This document shows, in pieces, positions 390 to 53,560 of a stretch of 53,560 bases of DNA. Source of the stretch: Girardia tigrina (lineage: Eukaryota). Under the pieces are notes generated by a model that worked only from the letters and a program-made list of their open reading frames with translations, made no database searches and had not been told where the DNA came from. How positions within the stretch are numbered: position 1 is the first letter of the stretch; each line of letters opens with the position of its first letter. Position numbers and translations under genes: made by a program. The stretch is taken from contig MQRK01228290.1 of assembly GCA_001938485.1 (NCBI GenBank), positions 1 to 53,560 on the forward strand, written 5' to 3'.

Positions 390-1626
390 TCCTTCATCAC
401 TGTTAGAAATTACTCTAATTCTTTTTTTCGGAATCGAAGGTTCGAATTCACTTTCATCACTCGAAGTTATTTGTGCCGATTCGATGTTTGAAGTAGAAAT
501 ATTTACATTATGAGAGATGGTAATAAAATCGGTTATTAACAATTGCTTCGATTTTTTTTGTAAGATCTTTGTAAACTTCTTCATATTGAGCCAAGCAGTG
601 ATTTATGTCACGTTGGAATCGTAAAGTCCTTTCAACGTTTGTGTCATTTTGTATAAAATGATTACCCAGTTTTCTTCCCAATGCGAATCCTTCGCGGATG
701 ACTTCAGTAGTGAATGTTACTGGTACTAATTCCTCTTCATCAGATTTGTCGGACTCACTTTCGCAAACTAAGTTAACTAAATCATCCTCATTTACTTCTT
801 TATCAGCCATTAACTCTACGATATCACCATCAGTAAAATCCTCAAAACCTTCTCTGCCCAATGAATGCGCCATCTGTACTATCTGCGAATATTCATTATT
901 TAAAGTTGAAATGGAATGTTCATTATTGACTACATTTGGCCACAATTTTTTCCAACAGCTATTGAGCGTTGTTTGCTTAATCGCAGTGTATGATAAGGCG
1001 ATATGCTTCACACACTCTAATATTGTAAAATTTTTCCAAGCACTAATAACTGTTAAAAATTCATTGTTCTCCATTTGTTCCAAAATATATGTAAAGGCTC
1101 GTTTTATGTACAAAGCTTTAACAGTAGAAATTATGCCTTGGTCCAATGGTTGTAATAATGAAGTTGTATTTTTTGGTAAAAATTTTACTTCAACGTTCTC
1201 ATACTCTAGATCTTGTGGGTGACCCGGCGTATTGTCAATTAACAAAAGCACTTTAAAAGGCAATCCCTTTGAACTTAAATATTTTTTGGCATTTTGGATA
1301 AAACATTCATGAAACCATTCAGTAAACATTGCAGCAGTAACCCACGCTTTTTATGGAAATTTTAATGTGTTATTATGTAAAGTAAGAATTATTTTTTTAG
1401 GTTATTTAATATTTTTTTCAATAATATGTATATTAATTTTTTAAGAGATTTTAACATGTAAATAACAAGAAGACGTTTTTAAAATAACATTTATTCCAAA
1501 ACATCTTGCTTTAAAAGCGACTCCGGAAAAAAGTCTTTATGTGCTTGACATACTTCGATAGATTTGAGTAAACCGTGTAAATCGAAAACGTGTAAAACAA
1601 GTACCGTGTAAATCGGGGGATAGGTG
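390..1626 (-). mobile_element. pogo/Tigger-like DNA transposon, internally deleted (DDE_1 transposase C-terminal part 508-1350)
   Basis: ORF motifs KAWVT..MFTEWF, LLLIDNTPGHP, FLPKNTTSLLQPLDQGII; terminus TA-CACCTATCCCCCGATTTACACGG at 1628-1604; the other terminus was not found. Confidence 0.85.
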
Positions 1627-1945: not shown

Positions 1946-3228
1946 TTAGGATGGTCGCAAAATAATGGCGATTTGGGACACAAAGTTCAAAGACGTGCAA
2001 ATTCACAGAAACAAAAGTTTATTAATCAAAGTATGAACCGTTGGCATCAATACATTTTTTCCAACGACAAACAAGTTGTTTTATTCCATCAGCATAAAAT
2101 GCATCGGTTCTCGAAGTGACGAATTCTTGGAAGGCATTTTGAGCATCATTTTGGTTTTTGAAAATTTTTTCACGTAGGAAGTTGTAAAAATGTCTGAAAA
2201 AGTAGAAGTCCGTTGATGAGAGGTCTGGTGAATATGGTGGATGAAGCAGGGTTTCATAGCCCAACTCATTAAGCCTTTGAAGAGTCACTTTTGAAATATT
2301 ATCATGAAGAAGGAAGGGACTTTTTCGATTGACCAATCCCAGACAAAGGGTTTTCAATGTTTTATGCATTTCATCAATTTCATGACAGTACCTCTCCGCT
2401 GTGATTGTTTCACCTGGATTCAAGAAACTATAGTTAATGATTCCAGCATCACACCACCAAACTGTCACCATAACCTTACGGGGTGTTAGTTTCGGTTTTG
2501 GAAAGTGTTTCGGTACTTAATCTTTGTCCAACCACTGTGCAGATCGACGTCGATCCATTTCTCATCTCAGGTAACAATACGATAGAGAAATGGATCGTTT
2601 TTATTGCGAAGATGATTGGCAGAACAAATTTCATAGCGTCGGTTCTTTTTATTTTCATTCAAATCATGTGGAACCCATTTATCAAGTTTCTTGATTTTTC
2701 CAAGNNNNNNNNNNNNNNNNNNNNNNNNNNNNNNNNNNNNNNNNNNNNNNNNNNNNNNNNNNNNNNNNNNNNNNNNNNNNNNNNNNNNNNNNNNNNNNNN
2801 NNNNNNNNNNNNNNNNNNNNNNNNNNNNNNNNATCTTCAAGGTTTTCATCTCCATCAGAAAATTTTCGGAACCATCGTTGCACTGTGCGCTCAGCAGCTG
2901 TTCCCTTGCCAAACGCTTTATTGATATTGCGAGCCGTTTCTGCTGCTTTACTACCCAGTTTAAATTCGTACAAGAAAATTGCTCGAATTTTAATTTTTCC
3001 ATTATTAATTTAGCACCGTAAATATTGTAAAAAATAACAGCAATATGTTAATAATGGCTATAGGAATATACNNNNNNNNNNNNNNNNNNNNNNNNNNNNN
3101 NNNNNNNNNNNNNNNNNNNNNGATTTCAAATAATATCTAACACTAATGCATTTAAACTTATATACATATCAAAGTAGATAAACAAAGTATAAAGCTCAAA
3201 AACCGCCATTATTTTTCGACCAACCTAA
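1946..3228 (-). mobile_element. mariner element (about 1.28 kb), degenerate transposase, inserted in the PLE
   Basis: TIRs TTAGG(A/T)TGGTCG(C/A)AAAATAATGGCG at both ends, flanked by TA; motifs MYEFKLG..ETARNI, VTVWW, LLHD, HPPYSPDLSSTD. Confidence 0.93.
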
Positions 3229-11437: not shown

Positions 11438-14400
11438 NGGGGCAAACTAAAACTGAATTTGATGTTGTTTATATAGTAATTTTCCTCAGCCTTGAAAATT
11501 GATGAGATAAAACAAAGAGTAAAATATTTATAATTTTTGATGAAGTAAAACAAATATTTATAATTTTGATTCCAAGTTTTCTTAAACTAAATATTATTTC
11601 GTTTGAAATTAATAATTTTATTAAAAGAATTATTTAAAAATTTCCTATATAAAATTTTATCAAAAATGTTCACACGTATTTTTTCGGAACCCTAACAAGT
11701 TCACGCTTGTTTTTAAACGCAATGAATAGAAATTTTAAAGTAAAACAAATTTAAATTTAAAACATTAAAAGAGCAAATTTAAAAATTTATAATTAATTGA
11801 TTTATAAAATTATATTTAATTAATTTATCCCACTTTAAAAATGAAGAAGATTATTGATTTCTTTTCGGCTTCGCATTCAAACAATTTTCCGGCAAATAAA
11901 AAAATCAGACTGAGTGAAGAAATAACGACAGAAGGTGTCACAGAAAAGACCATAACGGAACCGTCGGAACTAATGCATTCAGATAGGGGGTCTAGCCTTT
12001 CTGGATCGTCTGTTACTTTTGAGCAACTGCAGCCAACAGATTCTGACTGGCCTACCTGCTGGACTTTGGATCAAAGAAATGATTTCTATGCCATATATGA
12101 CTGCCTATTTATTCATAATACAAAACTTGGTTGTACCCCTTGCCGAAAAGTTGGCTACCTTGGAGTAGAGGCAAAGATGGGAATGAAAATATCCAAGGAA
12201 TGGGCCAACAATCAAATAACTTACTTCGGTACTAATCGAAAACAACAGCTAATGTCTTTACGAAAAAAATTATTCAATCACAAGGAAACTGCTGCACACA
12301 AAGCTGCACTTAAAATACTAGCAGAAGCCGAGACGGCACCTATTGAGAACGTGTTTTTAAAGGCATTATCTCGTGAAAAAATCGTGACGGCAAAGAATTT
12401 TCGTACAGGATATAAAGTAGCCAAAGAAAACCAATCGTTTCATAATTTTGAATCTGATATTGATTTACAAGAACTGAACGGAATTGAGATGGGCCGTATT
12501 CTTCATTCAACCAATGCATGCATTAACGTAGTGAATCACATTAATTGTGAAATGAGAAAAAAATTGGCTAAAGAAATTGTAAGGTCATACAATAAAATTT
12601 CATTGATTAACGACGAGTCAACAACGCTTAGCCAGAAATCTACTTTAATTGTGTACATTCGTGTTTGTCTTGCAGATAGTGGAATGAACTTACCAGTGAA
12701 TGTATTCTTGGATTTAGTAGAACTCGAAAGTGTAACTACAAAGGGAGTTTTTGATTGTTTACTGAATTGCCTTAATTCCTATGGGATAACAGAAGAATTT
12801 CTAAAAAAAATTTAGTTTGTCATGCATGTGATGGAGCAGCTGTAATGTTGGGATGCAAAAGTGGAGTCAAGAAATTGCTGAAAGAAAAGTTTCCATCTGT
12901 TCTGGTTTGGCATTGTACAAATCACCGACTGGAACTATCTGTTGGTGATACAGTAAAACAAGTTTCGGGGATTAACCGATTTAAGGTATTTATTGATAAA
13001 TTGTATGACCTTTATCATGATTCGCCAAAAAATTCGAGAGAATTGCAAATATGTGCTAATTTGTTAGAAGCTGAGTTGCTAAAAATTGGAAGAATGTTAA
13101 GCACGAGATGGGTTGCATCCAGCTTCCGTTCAGTTTTAGCAGTTTGGGGGGATTATGCAGTGTTGGTGCAACATTTTGAAGAAGCAAAACTTGATCCAAC
13201 CAGAGACAAAAAAGATCAATGCACACATGAAGGTCTGCAGCGAAAAATTACTTCTACTGAATTTGTATTAGACCTCGGATTGATGTGTGATGCCCTCCAA
13301 GAATTGTCAGAGTTAAGTTTGGATTTACAAGAGCGCAACATGGACATCTACAGAGTAGATCAAAAGATCAAGGCTCTTGCACCGGTTTTTGAAGAACGGC
13401 AAATTATTTCAGGCCCATATTATAAAATTGCGGCCACTGCTGCAGATACTAAACTTTTCAAAAGAGTTTCACTTCATAAAAAAGACTGTAAAAATGATCC
13501 ACCGATTGATGTGAAAGCTTTTTACAAAAAACTAAAAGAATCAGTTGAACAAAGGTTACTTTCCAGTGAAGATGCTGATTTGGCAGATTGGGCTGGAGTG
13601 CTCGATGTAAAACAATGGCCAGACAATATTGATACTCACTTAACGTTTGGCGAAGCAGAAATAAGAAACTTGTCAACAAGATTGCAATTAAACGAAAGAA
13701 CAATGATTTGTGGATTTCGTGAATATCTTATCAAGAAAAGTGTTCCGGATAAACTGCTTCCTTTGCAAATTGCTCTCAATACAATCCCAATTTCTTCAAG
13801 TGAAGCTGAAAGAAGATTTTCGCAAATGAATCTTATCATCACCCCGACAAGAGCTTCATTGATGACAACAACTGTTTCTTCACTTTTATTTATAAGATTA
13901 GTTGGACTACCACTCCTACGTTTTGATCCCACAAGATACGTTGATTCATGGCTGCTTCGAGGCAGACACTCAGCAATAGATACCAACAGCAAAGAACGCA
14001 GACGTGAATATGTGTCAGATGAAAACTTGATAAAACTTTGGAATTTATTATGAATTATTTCACACCAATGGCAATAAAATTTCTATTAAATTTTCACTTA
14101 TAACAGTTTTTTTAAAACAAATGAAAAATAGACACATTTTTTCAAAATAAACTGAGAATAAGTCGTTAGTTAAATCTTAAAACTATATTATACAATTTTA
14201 TTTAACAAATTTAATTGTTTTAAACTTTTAGTATCTTTGAAGTAGTGGTTTACATAAATAAATGATATCATTAATACCTATGCATCAGTTGCTTACAAAA
14301 CCACTTCTGTGTTAGATTCCGAAAAATGTACGACCTCAACTCCGTACCGGCTAGGTTAACAACATGTACCNNNNNNNNNNNNNNNNNNNNNNNNNNNNNN

Positions 14401-15584: not shown

Positions 15585-17380
15585 CGGAAAGGTGAGAAAC
15601 ATTCAAATGCTGACGCGATTCTTGCCAATTGTGTAGCCAATGTCAGACGCATGAAGAAGTCAAGAAAGGAAAGATCAAGACGAGAATTCTTGCATTGAAC
15701 GAATAGTCAGAGGGTTTCAAATGGCAAAAGAATAATGAAGAAATAAAACAAATTGTTGAACATATCAGAAAAGGTAAAACGAGGAAATGGATACTAAAAA
15801 ATGACATCGTGGCAACTCAGGACAATAAATTCTGGATCACAAAAGAAAAACGAACAGATTTTATTGAAGAGATGCACAAGCTGTTATGCCCAGAGCCGTG
15901 GCAACCACCCCCCGCGCCCCCCGGTCGGGGGGGCCTCACGCTTGCATGGGGCCTCACGCTTGCATGGGGCCTCTCCAAATTGGGTCAATATTTGAAAATG
16001 TAATAGAATAACAATAATAAGATCTAACACACACACACACTGCATATCGGCATGCTTCGTCTACCGTATAATTCAATCCTTCAAATAAATAATGGCTGCC
16101 NNNNNNNNNNNNNNNNNNNNNNNNNNNNNNNNNNNNNNNNNNNNNNNNNNNNNNNNNNNNNNNNNNNNNNNNNNNNNNNNNNNNNNNNNNNNNNNNNNNN
16201 NNNNNNNNNNNNNNNNNNNNNNNNNNNNNNNNNNNNNNNNNNNNNNNNNNNNNNNNNNNNNNNNNNNNNNNNNNNNNNNNNNNNNNNNNNNNNNNNNNNN
16301 NNNNNNNNNNNNNNNNNNNNNNNNNNNNNNNNNNNNNNNNNNNNNNNNNNNNNNNNNNNNNNNNNNNNNNNNNNNNNNNNNNNNNNNNNNNNNNNNNNNN
16401 NNNNNNNNNNNNNNNNNNNNNNNNNNNNNNNNNNNNNNNNNNNNNNNNNNNNNNNNNNNNNNNNNNNNNNNNNNNNNNNNGCAAGAATTTCTGGGGCAGA
16501 ATTTATTGCACCGCCATTAGCACGAGAGGATTGACAGTGAAAAAATCTAAGGGGCCACATAAATTTTTTCGGGGGGGGGCCTCCGGGTACTCTGCCACGT
16601 CCCTGGTTATGCCATGCTGGTAGTAAAAAAATCTAAAACTATCTTCGACAAGATTTTGACATGGAATATATGAGGAATTCCATTAAAGAAATAGTCCAAA
16701 GTTGTTTAAATTGTCAAAAAAGAAAGACATTAACAGCGAAAAAGAAAGAAAAACATATAAAATTTTCGGCAGATGAACCTTTCCAGAAAATATACATGGA
16801 CTTCCGTGGACCATTCAAAAGAAACATAAACGGATATCAATACGTACTTGCAATAGTAGACCAATTAAGTAGATATATTAGCCTGAATGCTGTTGCTAGT
16901 AATGATGAAAAAACAGTTCGTAGAGTGATATTGTAAAGATGGATATGGAAATTTGCCCCTCCAAAGGAAATCCATGTTGATAGAGGAAAAACATTTGAAT
17001 CGGCTTTGTTCAAAGATACAGTTAAAAGGTTCAAAGTCGAGATAATCTATTCAAGTCCATATCATCATAATACAAATGGCATAATGGAAAGACAATTCCA
17101 AACAATCAGAGATGCTATAAATATTAGAATGAAGGACGGAAACCACAGAGATTGGACAGAAGTTTTATCGGAAATAAAAATTATGTTGAATAGTACAGTC
17201 CAAGCTACGACAGGTGTTTCACCGGCTGAAATAATATTTGGGAGACGATTAAGACATTGGTGGAAGAACAATAAAATTGTGTTGAAACGAAATCACGAAA
17301 TGAGTTACGAGTTACAGCTCGAAGATGGTAGAATTTTAATTAGAAATGTTGAATGGCTAAAGCCATTTAAACCGAGGGGA
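15585..17380 (+). mobile_element. Gypsy pol 3' part (RNase H end, integrase) with polypurine tract
   Basis: RKGEKHSNADA; HKLLC/HAG..CLNCQ zinc finger; PFQKIYMDF.GP, LAIVD, EIHVDRG, SSPYHHNTNGIMER; PPT AAACCGAGGGGA directly before TG. Confidence 0.92.
15891..16605. mobile_element. hAT-type MITE (spans an N gap) inserted in the integrase zinc finger
   Basis: TIRs CAGAGCCGTGGCA / TGCCACGTCCCTG; perfect 8-bp TSD GTTATGCC; internal 18-bp tandem GGGGCCTCACGCTTGCAT. Confidence 0.9.
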
Positions 17381-17670
17381 TGTGAGGAATGTTTTGAATT
17401 GTGTGTTGATATTGTGCATGTTGTATGTTGATTCGGATTATATCTCTCCTGCACAGATGGATGATTGATATTTTCTTTGATTCTTACTAATTAAAAATAA
17501 TTAAATTTAATTTTAAAGTAAAAAGATTTAAAATAATTTTTGAATGTATTATTTAATTTTGAATGTAATTTAAAATTTAAATATATTAATTTAATATGTT
17601 CTTTTTTTAAAAAATGTTTAGATTTAATTTCAACCAATTAGATTCTTTATAATTAATATTTTTTATTAAC
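17381..17670 (+). mobile_element. Gypsy LTR (3' end approximate)
   Basis: Starts with TG directly after the PPT; related copies at 4473 and 41271. Confidence 0.7.
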
Positions 17671-17728
17671 AGATTTCCATTTATTGAAAATAATTAGTTT
17701 GAACTCAGAAATAAATTGATCAAGAGAG

Positions 17729-18070
17729 ATGTCAAATAGTGAATGCGCTTGTGATAATAATAAATGTTGCAAAAATCATATTGATGTTGTTAATATGGCG
17801 ACCACAGCTCATGTGACAACGAACATTATGGGACACGAAAAATTTGATGGATCCTAGGCGAAATTAGAAGACTTCATAAAAAATTTCGAACGTTATGCGG
17901 ATATTATGGGTATAACAGAAGATAGAAGATTAGTGATGGTGACAATCTTCATAACTCCATCAGCAATCACAAAATTTTCAGAAGCAGATGGAAATACGTA
18001 TAAAGAAAAGCTTAAAACGGCATTTGTGAAAGAAAAATCTTTGCTCGACACAATGAAGGATTTTTTAAAT
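17729..18070 (+). mobile_element. Gypsy gag N-terminal remnant
   Basis: MSNSECAC...EKFDGS*AKLEDFIKNFERYADIMGITEDRRLVMV, a gag-like FDG...FE.Y pattern. Confidence 0.65.
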
Positions 18071-20090
18071 CTCGACATAGCATCTGCATTTGAGTGTCTT
18101 TCACCTTTCGTGTATTCCATTCTCATATCAAGACCGCTGAGAAAATTTATCCTTGTTTGAAATTGCGGTGTTATTGGATTCTTTGAGGTCATCATAAACG
18201 TAATAGTTCTGTGGTCTGTTCTCAACAAGTATCTTTTCCCATATAAGAAATGCTTAAAATGCTGAGTGAAATAATATATCGCTAGTAATTCTTTTCTGGT
18301 AATGCAATAACCAAGTTCATGTTTATTCATCTTATGAGAACCATATGCTATGACTCTTTCTCTTCCACTCGAGTCTTTTTGTGACAGTACTGCTCTAATC
18401 GTATCGAAACTTGCATCTGTGTCCAATATAAATTCTTTATCGAAGTCTGGATACGCCAAGATTGGAGTTTGAACCATTCTTTCTTTTAATCTCTGAAAAG
18501 ATTCGTCACATTCTTTTGTCCATATTATTTTCTTATCCTTGTTTTTACCACACATGCCTTCTAAAACTTTCGAATATCTTGCATAATATTTTATGAATTT
18601 TCTGAAATAATTTGTCAAATACAAGAAACTCCTTAGATGTTTAATACATGATTGGTTTGAAACTTGTTAATCGCATCAATCTTTGTTTTATCAGTTTCTA
18701 AACCATCTTTACTTATTACGTAGCCCAGAAACTTGGTCTTTTCTATTAGAAATTGACATTTTTCCTTATTTATCCTCAAACCTGATTCTTTGATTTTTTT
18801 GAAACACATTCTTTATTCTTTGTAGATGTTCGTTCTTATCTTTAGAAAATATCAAGATGTTGGGATATAGGTGATTTTATAAAATAATTTAACGAGAAAA
18901 TCAAAACACAGAGAGATATTATTATTCAAGAATATATTTCTCTTATCTACAAATTTTATTTTCAAATTAAATGGACTACTTAATTCTAATTTTTAAATAA
19001 TGTGAGAAGAGGAAGTACTCTTGCCCACAGATGATTTTAAGTATATAAAAAATATATTACAGGTAATATAATTATATAAATATTTTACTTAGTATCTTTC
19101 TTTTTTCGATTTCCTTTTATAGGTAAGGAAAGGTGTATTTTGACCCTTCAGTTTTTTCTTTTATTTTTTGAGAACCTATTCAGATCACCTGGAAAGTTTG
19201 ACAGGTGATAATTCTAAATTCTTTGGGCGTTTCTCTTTCTTGTAATAAAATTTTTAAACTTTCTTTTCTTTAAACTTTCAGAATATAATTAAGCTTATTC
19301 TTAGATAATATAATTATAGGCCCTTTTCTTTTAAAAATCCTACTCTTTTATGGTCTTCTTTTTAAATACAATTTTCTTTATTTATCTTTTTAAATATAGT
19401 GTTTTTCTTTCTTTCGTAATCATTCTTTTTATTCTATTTAATTTATTTATCTTTTTAATGAGTTTTATTCTTATTATTTATATATATTATATTTATTAAG
19501 ATAGATGGATAAATAATATTTATTTAATCCAATAATTAAAACAATAAATTTTATAATTATATTAAATTAAATACCATACTCAACAAAGATATCATCTAGG
19601 TATACGACTGCTTCCTTCCAGTTCAATTCTTCAAGAATTTTTTACCATTAGTTCTTGAAAGGTGGCCGTAGCGGCTGCTATTCCGAAATGCATTCTTTTA
19701 AAACAATATTGACCATTCTTTGTCGAGAATGCCGTTTTAATCTTTGATTCTTTATCAAGTTCAACTTGATAGTATGCGTTACCCAAGTCAATTGTAGTGA
19801 AATACTTTGCACCATTCAATGTATTCAACATATCATCCACATTTGGTATGGGGAATGCTGGTCTGAGAGTAACTTTATTTAATTGTCTAAAATCCATGCA
19901 CATTCGTATTTCTTGTTTCTCTTTCTTCCAGACGCATACCAATGGAAAGTTCCATGGTGAACTACATTTTTCAATTATATCAATTTCTTCAAAATTTTTA
20001 ATAACTTCGTCTAATTTTTCATCAAAATGCCTTGGAGACTCGTACCTTTTCATTATAAGTCGTTTGAGAGGATCAGAAGCTCCTATAATT
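18071..20090 (-). mobile_element. Gypsy RT-RNase H remnant
   Basis: SSPWNFPLV.V.KK, RMCMDFRQLNK, IDLGNAYYQV, KTAF, VYLDDILIFS (split by a solo LTR), FILDTDAS, KELLAI, RTDH, HSNADAMSR. Confidence 0.93.
18858..19585. mobile_element. Solo LTR (728 bp) inserted just after the RT YLDD motif
   Basis: TGTTG...CAACA ends with a 4-bp TSD AAGA; removing it restores YLDDILIFSKD. Confidence 0.88.
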
Positions 20091-20316
20091 TTTGAGGTTT
20101 CCACCCGATAAATAGTCCGCCAGCATTCGCACGGATTGTTGAATAAAAAGAAGAAATTTGTGAAACTTATTGAAAGGCCAGATAAACCTCCATTAACTCA
20201 CCCTGAAAACATGATACAATTGGTTGCATTGGCTCCAAACCTTCTTTTGGCACAACAAAATTGAAAATGTGGTCGTACTTATTAAATATATGTAGTAATT
20301 CATTGATTTAGCCTTA

Positions 20317-25768: not shown

Positions 25769-26607
25769 CGTGGTGCGCTCAATAAGTAGTGAGCCTAACA
25801 TAAAAATAATAATCCGATTACAATGAAATTTATTTTTCATAACAAGCAAGTTATAAAGGTATCATTTCTCAAAGAAATCTCCATTCACACCAACATAATT
25901 TTTCCAGTGCACAACAAGGTCCAGAAAGGCTTTTTCGAAGAATTTCGGTGACTGTTGAGCCAAGAAATTTGAGACTGCATCCTTCAAGTCTTCTTTCGTA
26001 GCAAAATGTTGACCCCTGAGAGCTCGCTTGAGGTGGTTGAAGAGATGATAATCGGATGGCGCCAGATCCGCGCTGTATGGAGTGTGAGAGCAGGGCGAGG
26101 CCACAACCCTCAATTGATGACATTGACAGCCAACTTGTTTGGAAGGGTGCATTTTCGTGCAAATAATATAACTCACAAACTCTGCTCTTCCTTTTCAGCT
26201 TTCTGGGCTGTAGCACTAGCCGGGAGTAGTATTCACTGTTGACACGAACACCAGCTTCCGCAAATTCAGCAAGGATCATTCCATTTGCATCACAAAAAGT
26301 GGTGAGCATGAGAGCTTTTTTGTGAGAGGTTGATGATCGCATTTTCTTCGAACACCCTTCCCCTGGCAGCTTCCACTCTTGAGACTCACGTCTTGATTCT
26401 GGGATATAAAGGCCAAGTGGTGTTTCATCCATTCTCATAATATTCTGATAGAAGCGGTCTTATGCGCTCTCTAACCTAAACACAAATAATAGATTAAAAC
26501 AAATATCACAAATATTACCTTAGTAACTTGCTTGTTATGAAAAAAATATTCATTGGAATCAGAATATTATTTCTATGTTAGGCTCACTACTTATTGAGTG
26601 CTCCACG
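25769..26607 (-). mobile_element. Internally deleted mariner with inverted ends of about 93 bp
   Basis: TA-CGTGG.GC.CTCAATAAGTAGTGAGCCTAACAT at both ends; DET, YLHENAP, PYSADLAPSDY. Confidence 0.92.
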
Positions 26608-27659: not shown

Positions 27660-29880
27660 GATTATCATCCCATCCCATATCCCCACCAGATTCCTCCGTA
27701 CCCGAATCTCCATCTACTACGTAGTCATCCAAGTATTCAGGCCTTCTTCGCACACGCTTCATGTGGGTAATCACTGGTTCATCGACTTCTTACTCTGTGT
27801 CCCAAGACAAAGCTGTGTTCTTCACGTTCGACTCTTCTCGGCCGTAAATCAGTAACATGCCGAAGGAACCTCGACCCATTACAATCCACTAAATATTTAG
27901 AGTATGATAATTTTTTAATACTTGACCCTTTATCCATTGTTGCGTGCACCTTGTGCTTCCCATTGGTTTCACCCAGACTAATTGATAGTCACAATACATT
28001 GTACCCTTTGTACTGCCCTCTTCTCATTGTCACTTTTATGGCTTACGGGTTTCATAAATTTATAACTGTATATCATCCAACTCGGTGGTTCTTTGTTCTC
28101 CGACGGCTTATTGTTGTACCACCATACTGCTTCTGCAAATGTAATGCTTGATCTCGCCGCAATTCTTTTGATCGTCCTATGGTTTCTTTCAATGATCCCG
28201 TTTCCACCAGGTCGATTGCACGCTCGATAAATTAACTCTACTCCCCATCGATTGCAAACCTAAACAAACTCCTTTGAGTAAAAAGTGGTGTAATTGTCTA
28301 TTAACTATTCGCTGGGGGCTTCGCGTTCAAAACATATAGAATCTATTAACGCTGGAGATGGAGTTCGAACTTTCGTCACCAATTTCTTTCTAAATTGCAA
28401 ATCTGGATGGTCTACAATCGATTAAGCTTAAATACTTCCTGTCATTGTATTTTGTCACATCGATTGCCAATCTATACCAATTCTCCCTTACTGCCACGTA
28501 ACCGTGATTCTATTTTACCGGTGCGGGATCAATTGACTGGCATTTTTGACATTTTGAAATCATGTTCGTGATATCTTTATCCGTTACTTGAGTGTTTTCA
28601 ATCCCACAGAGAAATTTCATTCGTTTCGCTCCCAAATGGCATTTCTTATGAAGGTTGTCTAATTTCCCGATTTCACTTGTCGTGGCCACGCAGCATACGT
28701 TTTTAGTTAATGCCTTAGGTACCCACGTCATCTCATCCCCTTTATTCAGACTGCTCGCTACAAACTCTATCTTTATCATTATGTTAAAATCATCAATCAA
28801 TATATCAATATATCATCAATTAAAATATCAATCACGACTTCTTATTGTAATCAACTTCTCTTTTGTTTTTTCACTCTTTATTTATTGGGTGAAAATATCA
28901 TCAACGTATGATCCAGTGACAGCATTAATCGTTTGATCGGACGACAATTTCCGTCATCATGGTTGGGGCTGTATTGAGACCGAATCTCAGATGTGTTAAT
29001 GCGAACTTTTTTCCGTTGATAATATATGACTGAAACCGCCACATGGCGGGATCAACATGGATTTGCATGTATGCATCAGATAAGTCCAAAATTGCAAAAC
29101 TGTCACTCTTCCTTCTCCACACACGTAACTTTTCTACACAAACGTCTGAAGAACCACTGTAAACATCGATATATTTGTTCAATTCCCTGAAATCGAACAC
29201 GGGTCTTATCTTATCCTTATTCAACTGGGCTATACCATAAATGGGGATCGACCCCACTGACGCGCCCATTTTCTCGTCGTCATATTCTATTAAGTACCCT
29301 GTTTCCATCCATTTATTTAAAATATCCATCGTTGATTTGTCTTTTGGTTTTGACTCCTTCAATACGGTTTTTCTCCACGGTAAATGATCGGGGACATCCT
29401 ATTTCCAATCCCAAGAAACTGTCCACACTTTGTCGAAACGAATCCTGAAATTATGTTTCTTCGTGCCTCCCTCTTCAGTAATTCTAGTCCCAGACAACTC
29501 GACACTTGAACCCGAACTACAAACATTTACTAGATCGGAACTCACCCCAAACTTTACATTCCATTATGGAACACCATTCCTCTTAATTTCGCAATCATAT
29601 CAACACCCAACATTAAATCCAAATTTTCCGGTAACGCATTCATTACAATACAATTTTCGATTACCTCTTTATCATCCACGTTGATCCTTGTTGCCACAAA
29701 CACCTGAGACCCATTAGCCAGAGTAACTTGCTCTCGATTCCGCTGCATCAACGATCCTTCCACATTGCATCTTTTCACGACCGATCGCGAACACTCAGTA
29801 TCCACTAATGCTCTGCAGTTTTTTCCATTGACGATACATCGAATAACTGGAAGCGCCTTTAATCCCTCTGAGAAGCCGCT
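27660..29880 (-). mobile_element. Gypsy pol remnant (PR-RT-deletion-IN)
   Basis: ALVDTECSRSVV; RPVFDFRELN, LDLSDAYMQI, FGLNTAP, SYVDDI; HKKCHLG...CQKCQSIDP; RLAIDVT. Confidence 0.9.
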
Positions 29881-30070
29881 GACGCTGCGGACTCTTCGCT
29901 CACGTTTGAAATTGAAATTTACTTTAATATTATTATGATTTTCTTGGATAGTTTTTTTCACATTTGACAAATACAAGTGAAGAAAAGTGATTAGAAAAAG
30001 ATTGTTTGAACAAACAGAACTTTATTTTGATTGATTGTTGAGGAGAGTTTTTTTTAACAATTTTCTCCAG

Positions 30071-32432: not shown

Positions 32433-33739
32433 TAAAGGGTGGGCCAAAAGTAAGTACACAATTTATTCTGTTTAAATTTTTTTTTCAGGTTTACTTTTAT
32501 TTAAAATTTTTTAAATTATTTTATTCCACGGGCCTTGAATTTTTATCATGCCAAGATACACAACGGAGCAAAGAATATTTATGTTCGAATCTTCAATAAA
32601 ATTCAATAATTCAATTATTTTTGTTCAGCGCGAATTTCAAAAGCGTTATAAAACTAAAAATGTTCCAGAGAGAAGAACAATTTTAAATATTTTAAATAAA
32701 TTTTTGACTTCTGGATGTGTGGTAGATTTGCCAAGATTTTGGCGTCCTAAGATTGTGAGATCCGAAGAAAATATCCAACGCGTAGAAGAAAATGTTCAAT
32801 TCAAACTAAGATTATCGAAAAGAAAACGTTCGAGTCATCTGAATATTTCGATGACATCTCTTAGGCGAATTTTAAAAATTGATCTGAAAATGAAAGCATA
32901 CAAAATTCAGATCTGCCAAAAACTTCAACCGAATGATTTTCAGAAACGAGTTCATTATTCTGTCAGAATTCTGCAAATGGTGGTCGAAATTACAGATTTC
33001 ATTGACAAAATGATAATGACTGGTGAAGCTCACTTTTGGATGGGTATATAAATAAACAAAATTGAAGTTTCTGGTGTTCAGAAAATCCCATGGAGGTTAT
33101 TGAACAAACTTCAAGTCCCCCAAAATGCACAGTGTGGTACGGTATTACTTCTGAAGCAATAATTGGGCCTTATTTTTTCGAAGATACTGATGGTCACCAA
33201 ATCAATGTGAATGGAATAAGATATCGTCAAATGATCAGAGAGATTGTTTTACCATTCATCGAAAATAAACCGGATATGTGGATCCAACAGGACGGGGCCA
33301 CATGTCACACTGCAAATGAGATTATGAATTTGCTAAGAGATAATTTTGGTGACAGAATTATTTCAAGACGTGGTAACATTTAGTGGCCTCCCAGATCTCC
33401 AGATCTTAACGCACCTGATTTCTTCTTATGGGGTTATCTAAGAGACTGTGTATACAAAAGAAACCCAAGTCCAATATCAGATCTAAAGAAAATTATAACC
33501 GAGGAATTAAGATCGATTAAGCCATCAGTTTTAAACAGGGTAATGGAAACTGCCCTAGAAAGATGTAGAATTTATCAATCGAGAAATGGAAAACACCCAA
33601 ATAATGTAATCTTTAAAAGATAAATTAATAAAATATAACTTTTAAAGTTTATTTTTGTTTTATTGTTTGTTAAATTTAATAAAAGGAAAAGAAACTATAG
33701 GTTAAATAAATTGTGTAGTTACTTTTGGCCCACCCTTTA
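32433..33739 (+). mobile_element. DD41D (rosa) Tc1/mariner element, full length, transposase pseudogene 32548-33623
   Basis: TIRs TAAAGGGTGGGCCAAAAGTAA.TACACAATTTATT; EAHF, IIGPYFF, QQDGATCH...WPPRSPDLNAPDFFLWG with 41 residues between the last two Asp. Confidence 0.93.
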
Positions 33740-50372: not shown

Positions 50373-50381
50373 TGTACAACA

Positions 50382-51732
50382 TTTGAGCTCCTCCCGCAGC
50401 TGACTGACGAGCTTTCAAAGAAAATTTTCAATGGGTACGTCGAGGTACTCACCTAGATATCAAAGCTGCTCCTTGTGAACGGCCGTTCAGACGGTCTTTG
50501 CGGCTTGTTGGACGATCTTGCGTCTCTTCAGAACATCCTGGACGCCCAACGCGACATCCTTGCGTCGTGTATCAAGCGACCTGCTGGGGCTGCGGAGGAG
50601 GGCTCTAAAAGGACCGGTGATTCTGATCCATTACTTCATAATATCTGATATGTGATCCGGGAGCCCCTTGTAACGTCTCCTTCCAAACATCTCATTTCTT
50701 CTCCTCATCTTAGCGGTCCGAGGGATAGTGCGGATATCCCAAAGTCATGGGGTGAGATTGCAAACACCTTGAAGGTCAATTATACATCTAAGCCTGCTGC
50801 CCTCTCACCTCAGGACCAAGGCAATCCTAATTCTCGCGTCTCCAACAGTGGACCTCAGGGTCCTTCTGATGGGACGTCTAAATCAAAAGGATTGACAACA
50901 AAAGGCCCGAAAGGACCATTTGCTGGGTTATCAACCGACTTTTTCATCCGCAGGTGTGCGTTCTCTAAGCAAGGACGACATCTCTTCCTAGCAGTCCTCA
51001 ATTACTGTAGATACCATGGATCGCGACCCTTTGATCTTACTGGCTTCTGCCGATCATAATACGCTGATTACTTTGAGGACTTGGATCTCCCTAGGAACAC
51101 TAAGAACATAAAATCATTCACATGCACAGTGTTCCCAAACATATCAAAGACGAAACTCAATAAGGATATCCGCTCGTTCTTTAAGCTTATTTCATCTGGA
51201 GAGTTTCGACTTTGGCATCCTCGACAGGTTCCACCCACCCAACCGAGTCGCGCAAACAAAGTTGACCCTCCAAAGGAGTCTGAGGCTGAGGCCGCCCATT
51301 CTGCTCCAACTTTGGGTGCTGGTTCTCCACCTGGAGTTCTAGCACACCAATCCCTGACATCCGCATCGAAAGGGAATAAGGATTTCCTTCCTGTGATAAA
51401 AAAGAATAAGATTCGTTCTTCTAGCAAAGATCTTGTTAAGCCTGTTTCCGAGACATTTTCCAAGCCTAGCGTGTCTCGTCAAAACTCCGGGGCTAGTTTT
51501 GGTGTTCCTCTATCCTTGGCTTCGTATCTCGAAAAACTTGGTGCCCCCCTAATTCTCATCTACTATTTTGTGATTTGTTTCAATGGCTACGATTTCAATG
51601 AAACAGGTTGATAATCCAGACAGTATTTGGGTTATTTTTGAGAAGGATGCTCTAGTATCTCAACATTGTGTGTATCTAGTTGAAGGACTAGGAACTTTGA
51701 GATGGGAGGTGGCGAAGCAGGTCGACAGGGCA
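50382..51732 (+). pseudogene. Long decayed ORF of unknown family (about 450 codons)
   Basis: 50382-51611 is one frame with only three internal stops (it joins track ORFs 50652 and 51081), then a frameshift into 51583-51732; GC-richer than its flanks; no introns evident. Confidence 0.6.
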
Positions 51733-52014
51733 TGTCCCCCGGACCTCTTAATTTTACCAAGTTCATAAACTTATTCGGAGAAAAATTATCTGGATCTGAT
51801 CCTGAAGATTCCTTGAGGAATGCCTTCAAATGTTTGATTCCGAAAATAAAGGTTTCTTAGCAAAAGAATACATGAAAGATCTGTTAGAAAATATGGGAGA
51901 CAACTTTACCGCCGACGAGATTCGACAAACTCGGAAAGAAGCACCCCTTGCTGGGGCAAGTTAGACTATGAGGCCTTTGTAAAACAAATCAAGCGGGGCA
52001 AAGATGATGAATAG
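51733..52014 (+). pseudogene. Myosin regulatory light chain, 5'-truncated intronless copy
   Basis: (C)[87 protein letters not shown]; two 1-nt frameshifts. Confidence 0.93.
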
Positions 52015-52056
52015 ATTAATCAAATCTTAGTTTGTTTTCAATGTTCTCTATGAAAA

Positions 52057-52389
52057 ATGAACGACGAGCTCCACCAACAAGTAGTACTACAATGGGATGC
52101 CATCTACACTTGGCAAAAGAATGTGGAGTGGCATCAACGTCGATTGATAAGTAAGAAGCAACAGTGGAAGGCCCTCCTTAAAACGGTATCGAAAGGCCAT
52201 CATAGATACACACGTATCACCCAGGTGATTGGAGAACACCAAACGAGAATCGAAAAAATGCAGAAGAGAATCGCGCAAGAGCAAGTCTCTCTGATAACCT
52301 TCGAGAAGGAGACCAGAATAAGAATGACGAAGAAGGGTTGGAATTATTCCTATAATATTGGCGGAGTTAAAATATTTCAGAATCCTTAA
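52057..52389 (+). CDS. Hypothetical helical/coiled-coil protein, 110 aa
   Basis: Intact ATG ORF, AAAATG context, GC higher than spacers, AATAAA about 25 nt after the stop. Confidence 0.55.
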   Translation: MNDELHQQVVLQWDAIYTWQKNVEWHQRRLISKKQQWKALLKTVSKGHHRYTRITQVIGEHQTRIEKMQKRIAQEQVSLITFEKETRIRMTKKGWNYSYNIGGVKIFQNP

Positions 52390-52616
52390 TGTTTAGATTG
52401 ACAACAAATGTAAAATAAATGTTTTAGTAATAATTAGTCTTTACGTTTTGGCTTGTTTAGTATAAAAATAAAAAAAATTTTTGTAAAAAATTTTTAAAGA
52501 AAATTTAAAGAGAAATAGAAGTAATTATAATCATGTTAAGCTAAAAGGAACAATAGATTATATTTATTATAATTGGATCAAATACGAAACTCAATAATTA
52601 ATGGGACATTTTTAGC

Positions 52617-52994
52617 ATGAACAAGCCCATCGCAACTGTTCAACCGATACCGCAAGATCCGCGAGTGGTGGAGTTGAATGCACAAATTTGCCTAGCAATG
52701 AACATAATCGCCNNNNNNNNNNNNNNNNNNNNNNNNNNNNNNNNNNNNNNNNNNNNNNNNNNNNNNNNNNNNNNNNNNNNNNTCACCATGAGCGAGGTAC
52801 AGACATTGAATCGCGAAGTCAAAGTGGTGCTCGATGAAATAGAGACAAAATTGACGCAGTACGACGCCGACTTCAACCAAAGAAGCTTGGAGGAGTTCCG
52901 TGCGCACCATTTACGACTCTTAGAAATACAAGACCGAGACCAAGCAGACGAATGCGAACGTCTCATATATATTAACATTAACAGCTACTTGTGA
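52617..52994 (+). CDS. Hypothetical coiled-coil protein, about 125 aa (spans a gap)
   Basis: Open on both sides of the N gap; heptad-like pattern; TTTTTAG-C-ATG; AATAAA after the stop. Confidence 0.55.
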   Translation: MNKPIATVQPIPQDPRVVELNAQICLAMNIIAXXXXXXXXXXXXXXXXXXXXXXXXTMSEVQTLNREVKVVLDEIETKLTQYDADFNQRSLEEFRAHHLRLLEIQDRDQADECERLIYININSYL

Positions 52995-53092
52995 TTTTAA
53001 AAGGTAAAATGATAACAATAAAATAAAAATTTTTCTCATGTTATATTTAATTGTAATTGAGTATACAATATTTAATTATGATATTTTGGTAG

Positions 53093-53428
53093 ATGAAAAT
53101 TGACAAAGTAGCATTAATGAGAAAATTGAGAGAGTCCCAAAAGGAACTAACGAAACTTTTGGACAAACAAAAAGAATTGATGAACACAATAGAAAAGATC
53201 GAGGATCGACTACAAATAATGCGACAACGGCAGCTATACCCTTTAGGGGCAATCAGGGAACAAAAGGCAAATTTGGCACAACACACCAAAAAACTTAAAG
53301 AATATAGAAATCGCACAAAAATTATATTAACACTGATTGAAAATTATGGGAGACAGATTCGAACTCTGTCTGAAATAAACTTCAACTATTTTGATGATAA
53401 CGTCAATGATGATGATGAAATACAATAG
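53093..53428 (+). CDS. Hypothetical coiled-coil protein with acidic tail, 111 aa
   Basis: Intact ORF, K/E/Q/L heptads, TTTTGGTAG-ATG, AATAAA at about 53494. Confidence 0.55.
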   Translation: MKIDKVALMRKLRESQKELTKLLDKQKELMNTIEKIEDRLQIMRQRQLYPLGAIREQKANLAQHTKKLKEYRNRTKIILTLIENYGRQIRTLSEINFNYFDDNVNDDDEIQ

Positions 53429-53500
53429 AGTTATTGCAGTGATGTCGTATTAATAGAAACTATTAATTATGCTTGTATAAGGTGATTAAAGAGAATAAAA

Positions 53501-53556
53501 ATTTGAGTCTATGGGAGACATTTAAAATTTATTTGAGCCTACGGGAGGCGATTAAA
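53501..53556. repeat. 30-bp-period tandem repeat containing a small hairpin
   Basis: ATTTGA-GTCT-ATGGG-AGAC-ATTTAAA and ATTTGA-GCCT-ACGGG-AGGC-GATTAAA. Confidence 0.7.
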
Positions 53557-53560
53557 ATAA

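Follow-up and report, generated by a model that had tools for sequence, protein, structure and literature searches.

A truncated retroelement fragment at the end of a contig

The window analysed here, 53,560 nt of Girardia tigrina DNA, is the entire contig C228290 (MQRK01228290.1) of an AT-rich, fragmented 1.43-Gb assembly. Three co-oriented ORFs lie on the plus strand near its right end, at 52057–52389, 52617–52994 and 53093–53428, where an earlier sequence-only reading had placed them. Comparison among copies identified the surrounding DNA as a 5'-truncated fragment of a Burro-type LTR retrotransposon (52061–53560, plus strand), derived from the leader region that runs from the primer site to gag. 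The fragment is 97% identical to contig C47422 across 52097–53558, and the homology of five further contigs begins at 52061. It reaches the last base of the window and, because the window is the whole contig, the element runs off the contig end.

We designate the three frames ORFs A, B and C. ORF A (52057–52389, 110 aa) is a remnant lacking approximately its first 37 codons: full-length copies encode 147–150 aa, and the ATG at 52057 is supplied by an adjoining myosin light-chain pseudogene piece, with element homology beginning at 52061. ORF B (52617–52994) encodes a 125-aa accessory protein that is shared with a nine-ORF sister family; it contains 70 N (52713–52782), and its length and frame are confirmed by C47422, the closest copy, which has the same 378 nt in frame with 6 mismatches beyond the N run. 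ORF C (53093–53428) encodes a putative coiled-coil accessory protein of 111 aa and is open in the window. The three had been described as open frames of 110–125 aa; the frames were indeed found, but the first has a borrowed start and a cut 5' end, and the second spans the run of N. The description of short AT-rich spacers with AATAAA after each ORF was accurate: the spacers measure 227 nt (19% GC) and 98 nt (15% GC), compared with 33–47% GC in the ORFs, and AATAAA occurs at 52414, 52467, 53017 and 53494. Acceptor-like sequences precede two of the start codons on the plus strand, a T-rich AG at 52609–52615, 1 nt 5' of the ORF B ATG, and, at 53084–53092, a site whose final TAG abuts the ORF C ATG. 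Beyond ORF C, 53429–53560 is the start of a conserved non-coding stretch that leads to a further ORF, D, and gag in other copies. The window copy is a dead fragment and ordinary in itself.

Upstream and outside the element lies a piece of a myosin regulatory light chain gene (51554–52062, plus strand), intronless and frameshifted, that is 98% identical to C227760 and 100% identical to part of C173752; its best PDB matches are mollusc light chains (E 2e-29). It joins the element through a 2-nt overlap. There is one other near-identical locus, and here each end of the piece adjoins a different repeat, pointing to either a templated insertion or an assembly misjoin. The neighbouring stretch at 50376–51549 belongs to another repeat, decayed and fragmentary, with 89% identity to contigs that carry an 899-aa open low-complexity frame. 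Seven other stretches of the window (508–1350, 2022–3047, 11820–14053, 16937–20197, 25862–26459, 28925–30021 and 32539–33383) look by eye like decayed transposon fragments, which we take to be Tigger/pogo, mariner, hAT-like, Tc1 and ordinary gypsy elements.

Anatomy of the element and the place of the accessory genes

The ORFs had been called orphans, yet many genomic copies were found: the ORF C region has at least 53 DNA matches at 70–100% identity, and ORF B has at least 150 scored matches among 405 candidates, approximately 36 with internal stops by hand count. The full row consists of five ORFs, Z-A-B-C followed by about 1 kb of non-coding DNA and then D (113–117 aa), after which gag begins. 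In loci with at least three genes matched, the order Z-A-B-C-D-gag and the common strand are kept, barring deletions and duplicated or nested pieces; these loci overlap and do not amount to a count of independent copies. The copy-number and gene-order check suggested by the sequence-only reading thus returned a multicopy, dispersed module of constant order.

No hallmark gene lies inside the window, as that reading had remarked, and the search it proposed beyond the window was productive: other contigs carry the same ORFs linked to LTR, gag, env and pol. Z-A-B-D-gag is linked on C230465, in this case on one contig with no N gap, and on C190245; Z-A-B-C-gag is linked on the single contig C223608 and B-D-gag on C254888. 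C181156 joins D, gag and a Monjiviricetes-type fusion env, and C243577 joins env and protease (PR), so that the mononegavirus-type fusion env sits between gag and PR. C239256 runs from D through gag, PR, RT, RH, IN, 3' ORFs and the polypurine tract to the start of an LTR, and the order PR-RT-RH-IN recurs on C233293 and, in the sister family, on C249044. C232571 and C247209 carry B-C or Z-A-B-C together with the polypurine tract or 3' LTR start on one contig. A joint between C and env in C232571 was considered as a splice and rejected; it is a 4-nt microhomology deletion.

The resulting layout is LTR (TGTTAC...GACA, approximately 1.5 kb), tRNA-Pro primer site, Z, A, B, C, non-coding stretch, D, gag, then env, PR, RT, RH, IN, extra 3' coding sequence, polypurine tract and LTR. 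The LTR end (…GCACGACA) lies upstream of Z and is followed by the primer site, which is present in exact form before Z in C47422, the closest copy to the window. Beyond the LTR end, solo copies show unrelated flanking sequence, and the primer site before Z is present in those copies that run on into the element. Because the LTR stops short of Z, we rejected a layout with the ORFs inside a 5-kb LTR. The primer site pairs with the 3' terminus of host tRNA-Pro(TGG); it has 16 genomic matches, and all 5 primer-site matches in three scanned loci were to this tRNA. Ty3/gypsy LTR features are present, namely TG...CA ends, primer site, polypurine tract and, in one solo LTR of 1522 nt, a 4-nt target duplication. 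Pfam detected Monjiviricetes fusion, zf-CCHC, RNase H and integrase domains in the window-type family, with the gag of C181156 matching zf-CCHC (E 7e-7) and Ty3_capsid (E 0.019); dUTPase and ubiquitin-like domains were not detected by Pfam in the scanned fragments of this family, and a search for gag among longer proteins gave no match. Segment lengths sum to about 25 kb, an estimate from a fragmented assembly, and the window-type copies seen were all broken, with a single continuous polyprotein frame present only in the sister family.

In that sister family, nine small ORFs precede gag in fixed order (L053:275-6535, L157-L159, L165). One is a clear homolog of B, two are weakly like C and D, three are paralogs of one another, and the B-like ORFs are duplicated in some copies. 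A single open frame of 4142 aa encodes gag, ubiquitin-like, env, PR, dUTPase, RT, RNase H and integrase regions, of which the ubiquitin-like (E 0.0026), dUTPase (E 0.0043) and protease matches fall below Pfam cut-offs; the gag matches zf-CCHC (E 7.6e-6) and Ty3_capsid (E 1.4e-4). A strong acceptor precedes this gag (L176-L205, 83 exact genomic matches), and in 30 of 34 copies the second codon after it is a stop, though codon 1 varies. A leader AUG that starts gag in phase 0 was rejected on account of this stop. In three Burro-type families, more than 100 codons ahead of the first ATG of gag form a conserved open frame with an RRSxR motif (L090:2368 on, L157-L159, L057:3572 on, L176-L229), and 20 of 22 and 24 of 25 motif matches have an ACG close to where the frame starts. 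ACG is retained no more than other four-fold sites, which leaves a non-AUG start of gag as only a lead.

Other elements adjoin the accessory cassette in individual copies. A non-LTR element with a Ulp1 protease and RT, presumably NeSL-like, is inserted directly behind ORF C in one copy (L031:3602-8782). A more distant LTR family with ankyrin, a membrane ORF and a DEDDh (RNase_T) exonuclease behind integrase (L021:5255-7450, L038:1190-5719, L065:539-2574) adjoins or is joined to several copies of the cassette; in the segments scanned with Pfam, the ankyrin match is confined to the 3' ORFs of this more distant element.

Altogether, it is probable that the three window ORFs are A, B and C of a set of five accessory genes that a multicopy Ty3/gypsy element with a Burro-type env carries between its 5' LTR and gag, each likely expressed from its own spliced message. 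One suggestion of the sequence-only reading, accessory genes of a giant LTR element comparable to planarian Burro, is upheld by linkage of LTR and primer site to Z-A-B(-C)-D-gag, of gag to env and of gag to pol. That reading had also offered a lineage-specific host gene cluster or the cargo of a Polinton/Maverick or Helitron, and had named exons of one spliced gene as a case that would overturn it. A window without a hallmark gene, and ORFs without a family or fold match, are compatible with any of these. However, the ORFs occupy one constant position, after the LTR and primer site and before gag, in many copies that are dispersed and partly decayed; the genes linked to them are gag, env and pol, with LTRs at the ends; every ORF has a separate ATG and a conserved stop; and pPolB, capsid and Rep/Hel were absent from the neighbouring ORFs scanned, a subset of all ORFs. 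Linkage already largely refutes this set of alternatives, and we regard them as very improbable.

Selection on the ORFs and predicted products

We estimated dN/dS among open, N-free copies only, dropping broken or gapped ones (Z n = 10, A n = 6, B n = 37, C n = 14, D n = 10). For pairs with dS > 0.15, values were 0.13–0.26 for Z, 0.16–0.27 for A, 0.17–0.23 for B, 0.22–0.25 for C and 0.10–0.13 for D, 0.11–0.27 for the sister-family ORFs and 0.10–0.27 across all 13 ORF types, where NG86 saturates at dS > 1 and copy pairs are not independent. Close pairs gave 0.27–0.58, as expected if decay after insertion adds neutral change. A +1-frame control mostly gave 0.7–1.5 but 0.45–0.54 for ORF C, making the contrast weaker for that gene. 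Purifying selection acts on every ORF type, and the test of constraint among copies that had been proposed earlier came out positive, at 0.13–0.27 for diverged Z, A, B and C.

The encoded proteins match no known family and are predicted to form helical hairpins or bundles. In AlphaFold models, a full copy of ORF A folds into a long hairpin of helices plus a small sheet (pLDDT 88.6) and ORF B into three long helices (pLDDT 80.8). The earlier description of all three as coiled-coil or helical agrees with these models for A and B, whereas C gave only sub-threshold coiled-coil matches, as did Pfam on the window ORFs generally. Homolog searches returned two proteins for A and, with the B profile, five; none of them has a name and all come from a single source. 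A library of 1.84 billion sequences yielded five homologs; an ESM Atlas search gave no usable match. Fold searches with A (PDB, viral and wide sets) and B (viral set) found nothing at E ≤ 0.001 (best Z 8.8), and the best sub-threshold matches were generic hairpins (ESCRT-III/PspA, prefoldin) that we do not count as evidence. A, B and C show no detectable paralogy to each other. With low confidence, we suggest that the accessory proteins most likely work as oligomeric adaptors, with host or particle proteins as their targets.

Expression of the row and relation to known systems

An AG lies 0–4 nt 5' of the ATG in 50–100% of copies for 13 of 13 ORF types, which are not all independent, as three are paralogs. 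Chance levels are 0.22–0.39 in shuffles, 0.32 at internal ATGs (n = 362) and 0.21 at spacer ATGs (n = 264). The AG is present in 97% of 36 copies of ORF B and 14/14 of ORF C, and is usually a YAG behind a T-rich tract. In addition, the final 260 nt of the LTR hold seven conserved ATG columns, so that scanning would reach even the first ORF with difficulty. Since the AG recurs in every ORF type, expression by splicing is likely, with each accessory ORF probably gaining its own message through an acceptor at its start codon. Upstream ATGs and stops would be too numerous in the LTR transcript for scanning to work; the spliceosome would join a short 5' leader to one acceptor per transcript and so place one ORF first; and part of the RNA would stay unspliced to serve as genome. 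AATAAA lies within 100 nt past the stop in 50–86% of copies versus 13–40% in shuffles, an excess over chance of modest weight, because the copies are related. Against the splicing model, AATAAA after each ORF would, if used, cut the genomic RNA. No splice joint was seen at the acceptors in eight public runs, available as contigs only and with two on record as RNA; run contigs (word shares 0.04–0.23) cover LTR, ORFs and spacers alike and so cannot show transcription or splicing. For a related element, BURRO1, transcripts are reported to rise after smedwi-2 knock-down (PMC8532177, excerpt).

As the source of the leader we tentatively favour a donor in the LTR, at a little short of even confidence, over host spliced-leader trans-splicing. 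GTAAG occurs within 700 nt of the primer site in 0 of 8 LTRs of the window-type family, against 4.6 expected by shuffle, which speaks for trans-splicing; these LTRs have only weaker donor-like sites, which count towards an LTR leader. In the sister family, however, 7 of 13 LTRs share a GTAAG in the same context, a donor-like site that speaks against trans-splicing, although GTAAG overall shows no excess there (9/13 versus 7.0 expected). Under the donor-first rule, moreover, a cis donor out-competes the spliced leader and even a weak GT can serve (PMC4558846, excerpt). If the leader instead came from the host, an enveloped retroelement would have built an operon of 5–9 accessory genes before gag, with the spliced-leader machinery cutting a polycistronic LTR transcript and 3' ends forming at each AATAAA. 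Three features suit that arrangement: spacers of 98 and 227 nt, AATAAA downstream of the stop, commoner than in shuffles, and a T-rich YAG where the next ORF starts; in excerpts, flatworm operons are defined by spacing of up to 300 bp and UUNYAG (PMC12582326), and operon intergenic spacing peaks near 100 bp (PMC8629364), so both spacing and acceptor form fit. No leader-bearing sequence was seen in the eight runs (contigs only), and we consider the operon possible but doubtful.

The same element might instead express each ORF from a short internal promoter in its AT-rich spacer, or by reinitiation, the AG then belonging to an initiator or to the context of the start codon. Some Oikopleura Tor elements are reported to transcribe env from an internal promoter (PMC4402516, excerpt), and AATAAA follows the ORFs more often than in shuffles. 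Against this, spacers of 100–230 nt would have to house a 3' UTR as well, and the pyrimidine and T-rich tract before the AG, with a variable 0–4 nt to the ATG, resemble an acceptor. We judge separate promoters or reinitiation unlikely, and return to splicing from a common LTR leader as the preferred reading.

The element class and the existence of upstream accessory ORFs are already known. Burro-type elements have been proposed to be integrated proviruses that shape planarian genomes. Burro-1 to -4/GYPSM1 are giant gypsy-like LTR retrotransposons of Schmidtea and Dugesia, and section 7 of PMC6431247 gives them a CCHC gag, a mononegavirus-like fusion env between gag and protease, a very long polyprotein, weak ubiquitin-like and dUTPase matches and upstream accessory ORF(s). 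The elements here have the same kind of gag, env position and upstream ORFs, and the sister family also has a very long polyprotein and sub-cut-off ubiquitin-like and dUTPase matches. Only a single upstream accessory ORF, bearing a MATH domain, is named in that section, which gives no expression route, whereas here five (window-type) or nine (sister) small helical ORFs form a fixed row with an acceptor-like AG each. The LTR here is ~1.5 kb; a length above 30 kb is expected of the Burro type, and the ~25 kb estimated above comes from incomplete copies. MATH, BIR and BCL2 gave no Pfam match in the segments scanned here, whereas the published Burro calls used HHpred. Our assignment to the Burro type is by layout and domain content as described for Burro-1 to -4.

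Complex retroviruses and adenovirus late units use one promoter, a short leader and alternative acceptors that each place another ORF first, and the accessory genes of complex retroviruses lie mostly 3' of gag-pol. By contrast, the accessory genes here lie 5' of gag, between primer site and gag. Spliced-leader operons of flatworms and nematodes, as excerpted, likewise have co-oriented genes 100–300 nt apart with a polyadenylation signal and then an acceptor (PMC12582326, PMC8629364), whereas the row here belongs to a mobile element, which has to preserve its full-length RNA. Oikopleura Tor elements are also env-bearing LTR elements that express a downstream gene through LTR splicing or an internal promoter, but the excerpt describes one env gene there, compared with a row of accessory genes before gag here (PMC4402516). 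We did not find a 5–9-gene row with acceptors described in the literature searched; Grohme et al. 2018 and Figure 2A of PMC6431247, outside that search, may draw such ORFs.

The accessory ORFs constitute 13 new small protein families, and a row of selected, family-less helical genes with their own acceptors provides a testable model of expression. If trans-splicing proves true, a mobile element would be organized as a host-style operon, and host trans-splicing would set the balance between accessory proteins and packaged genome.
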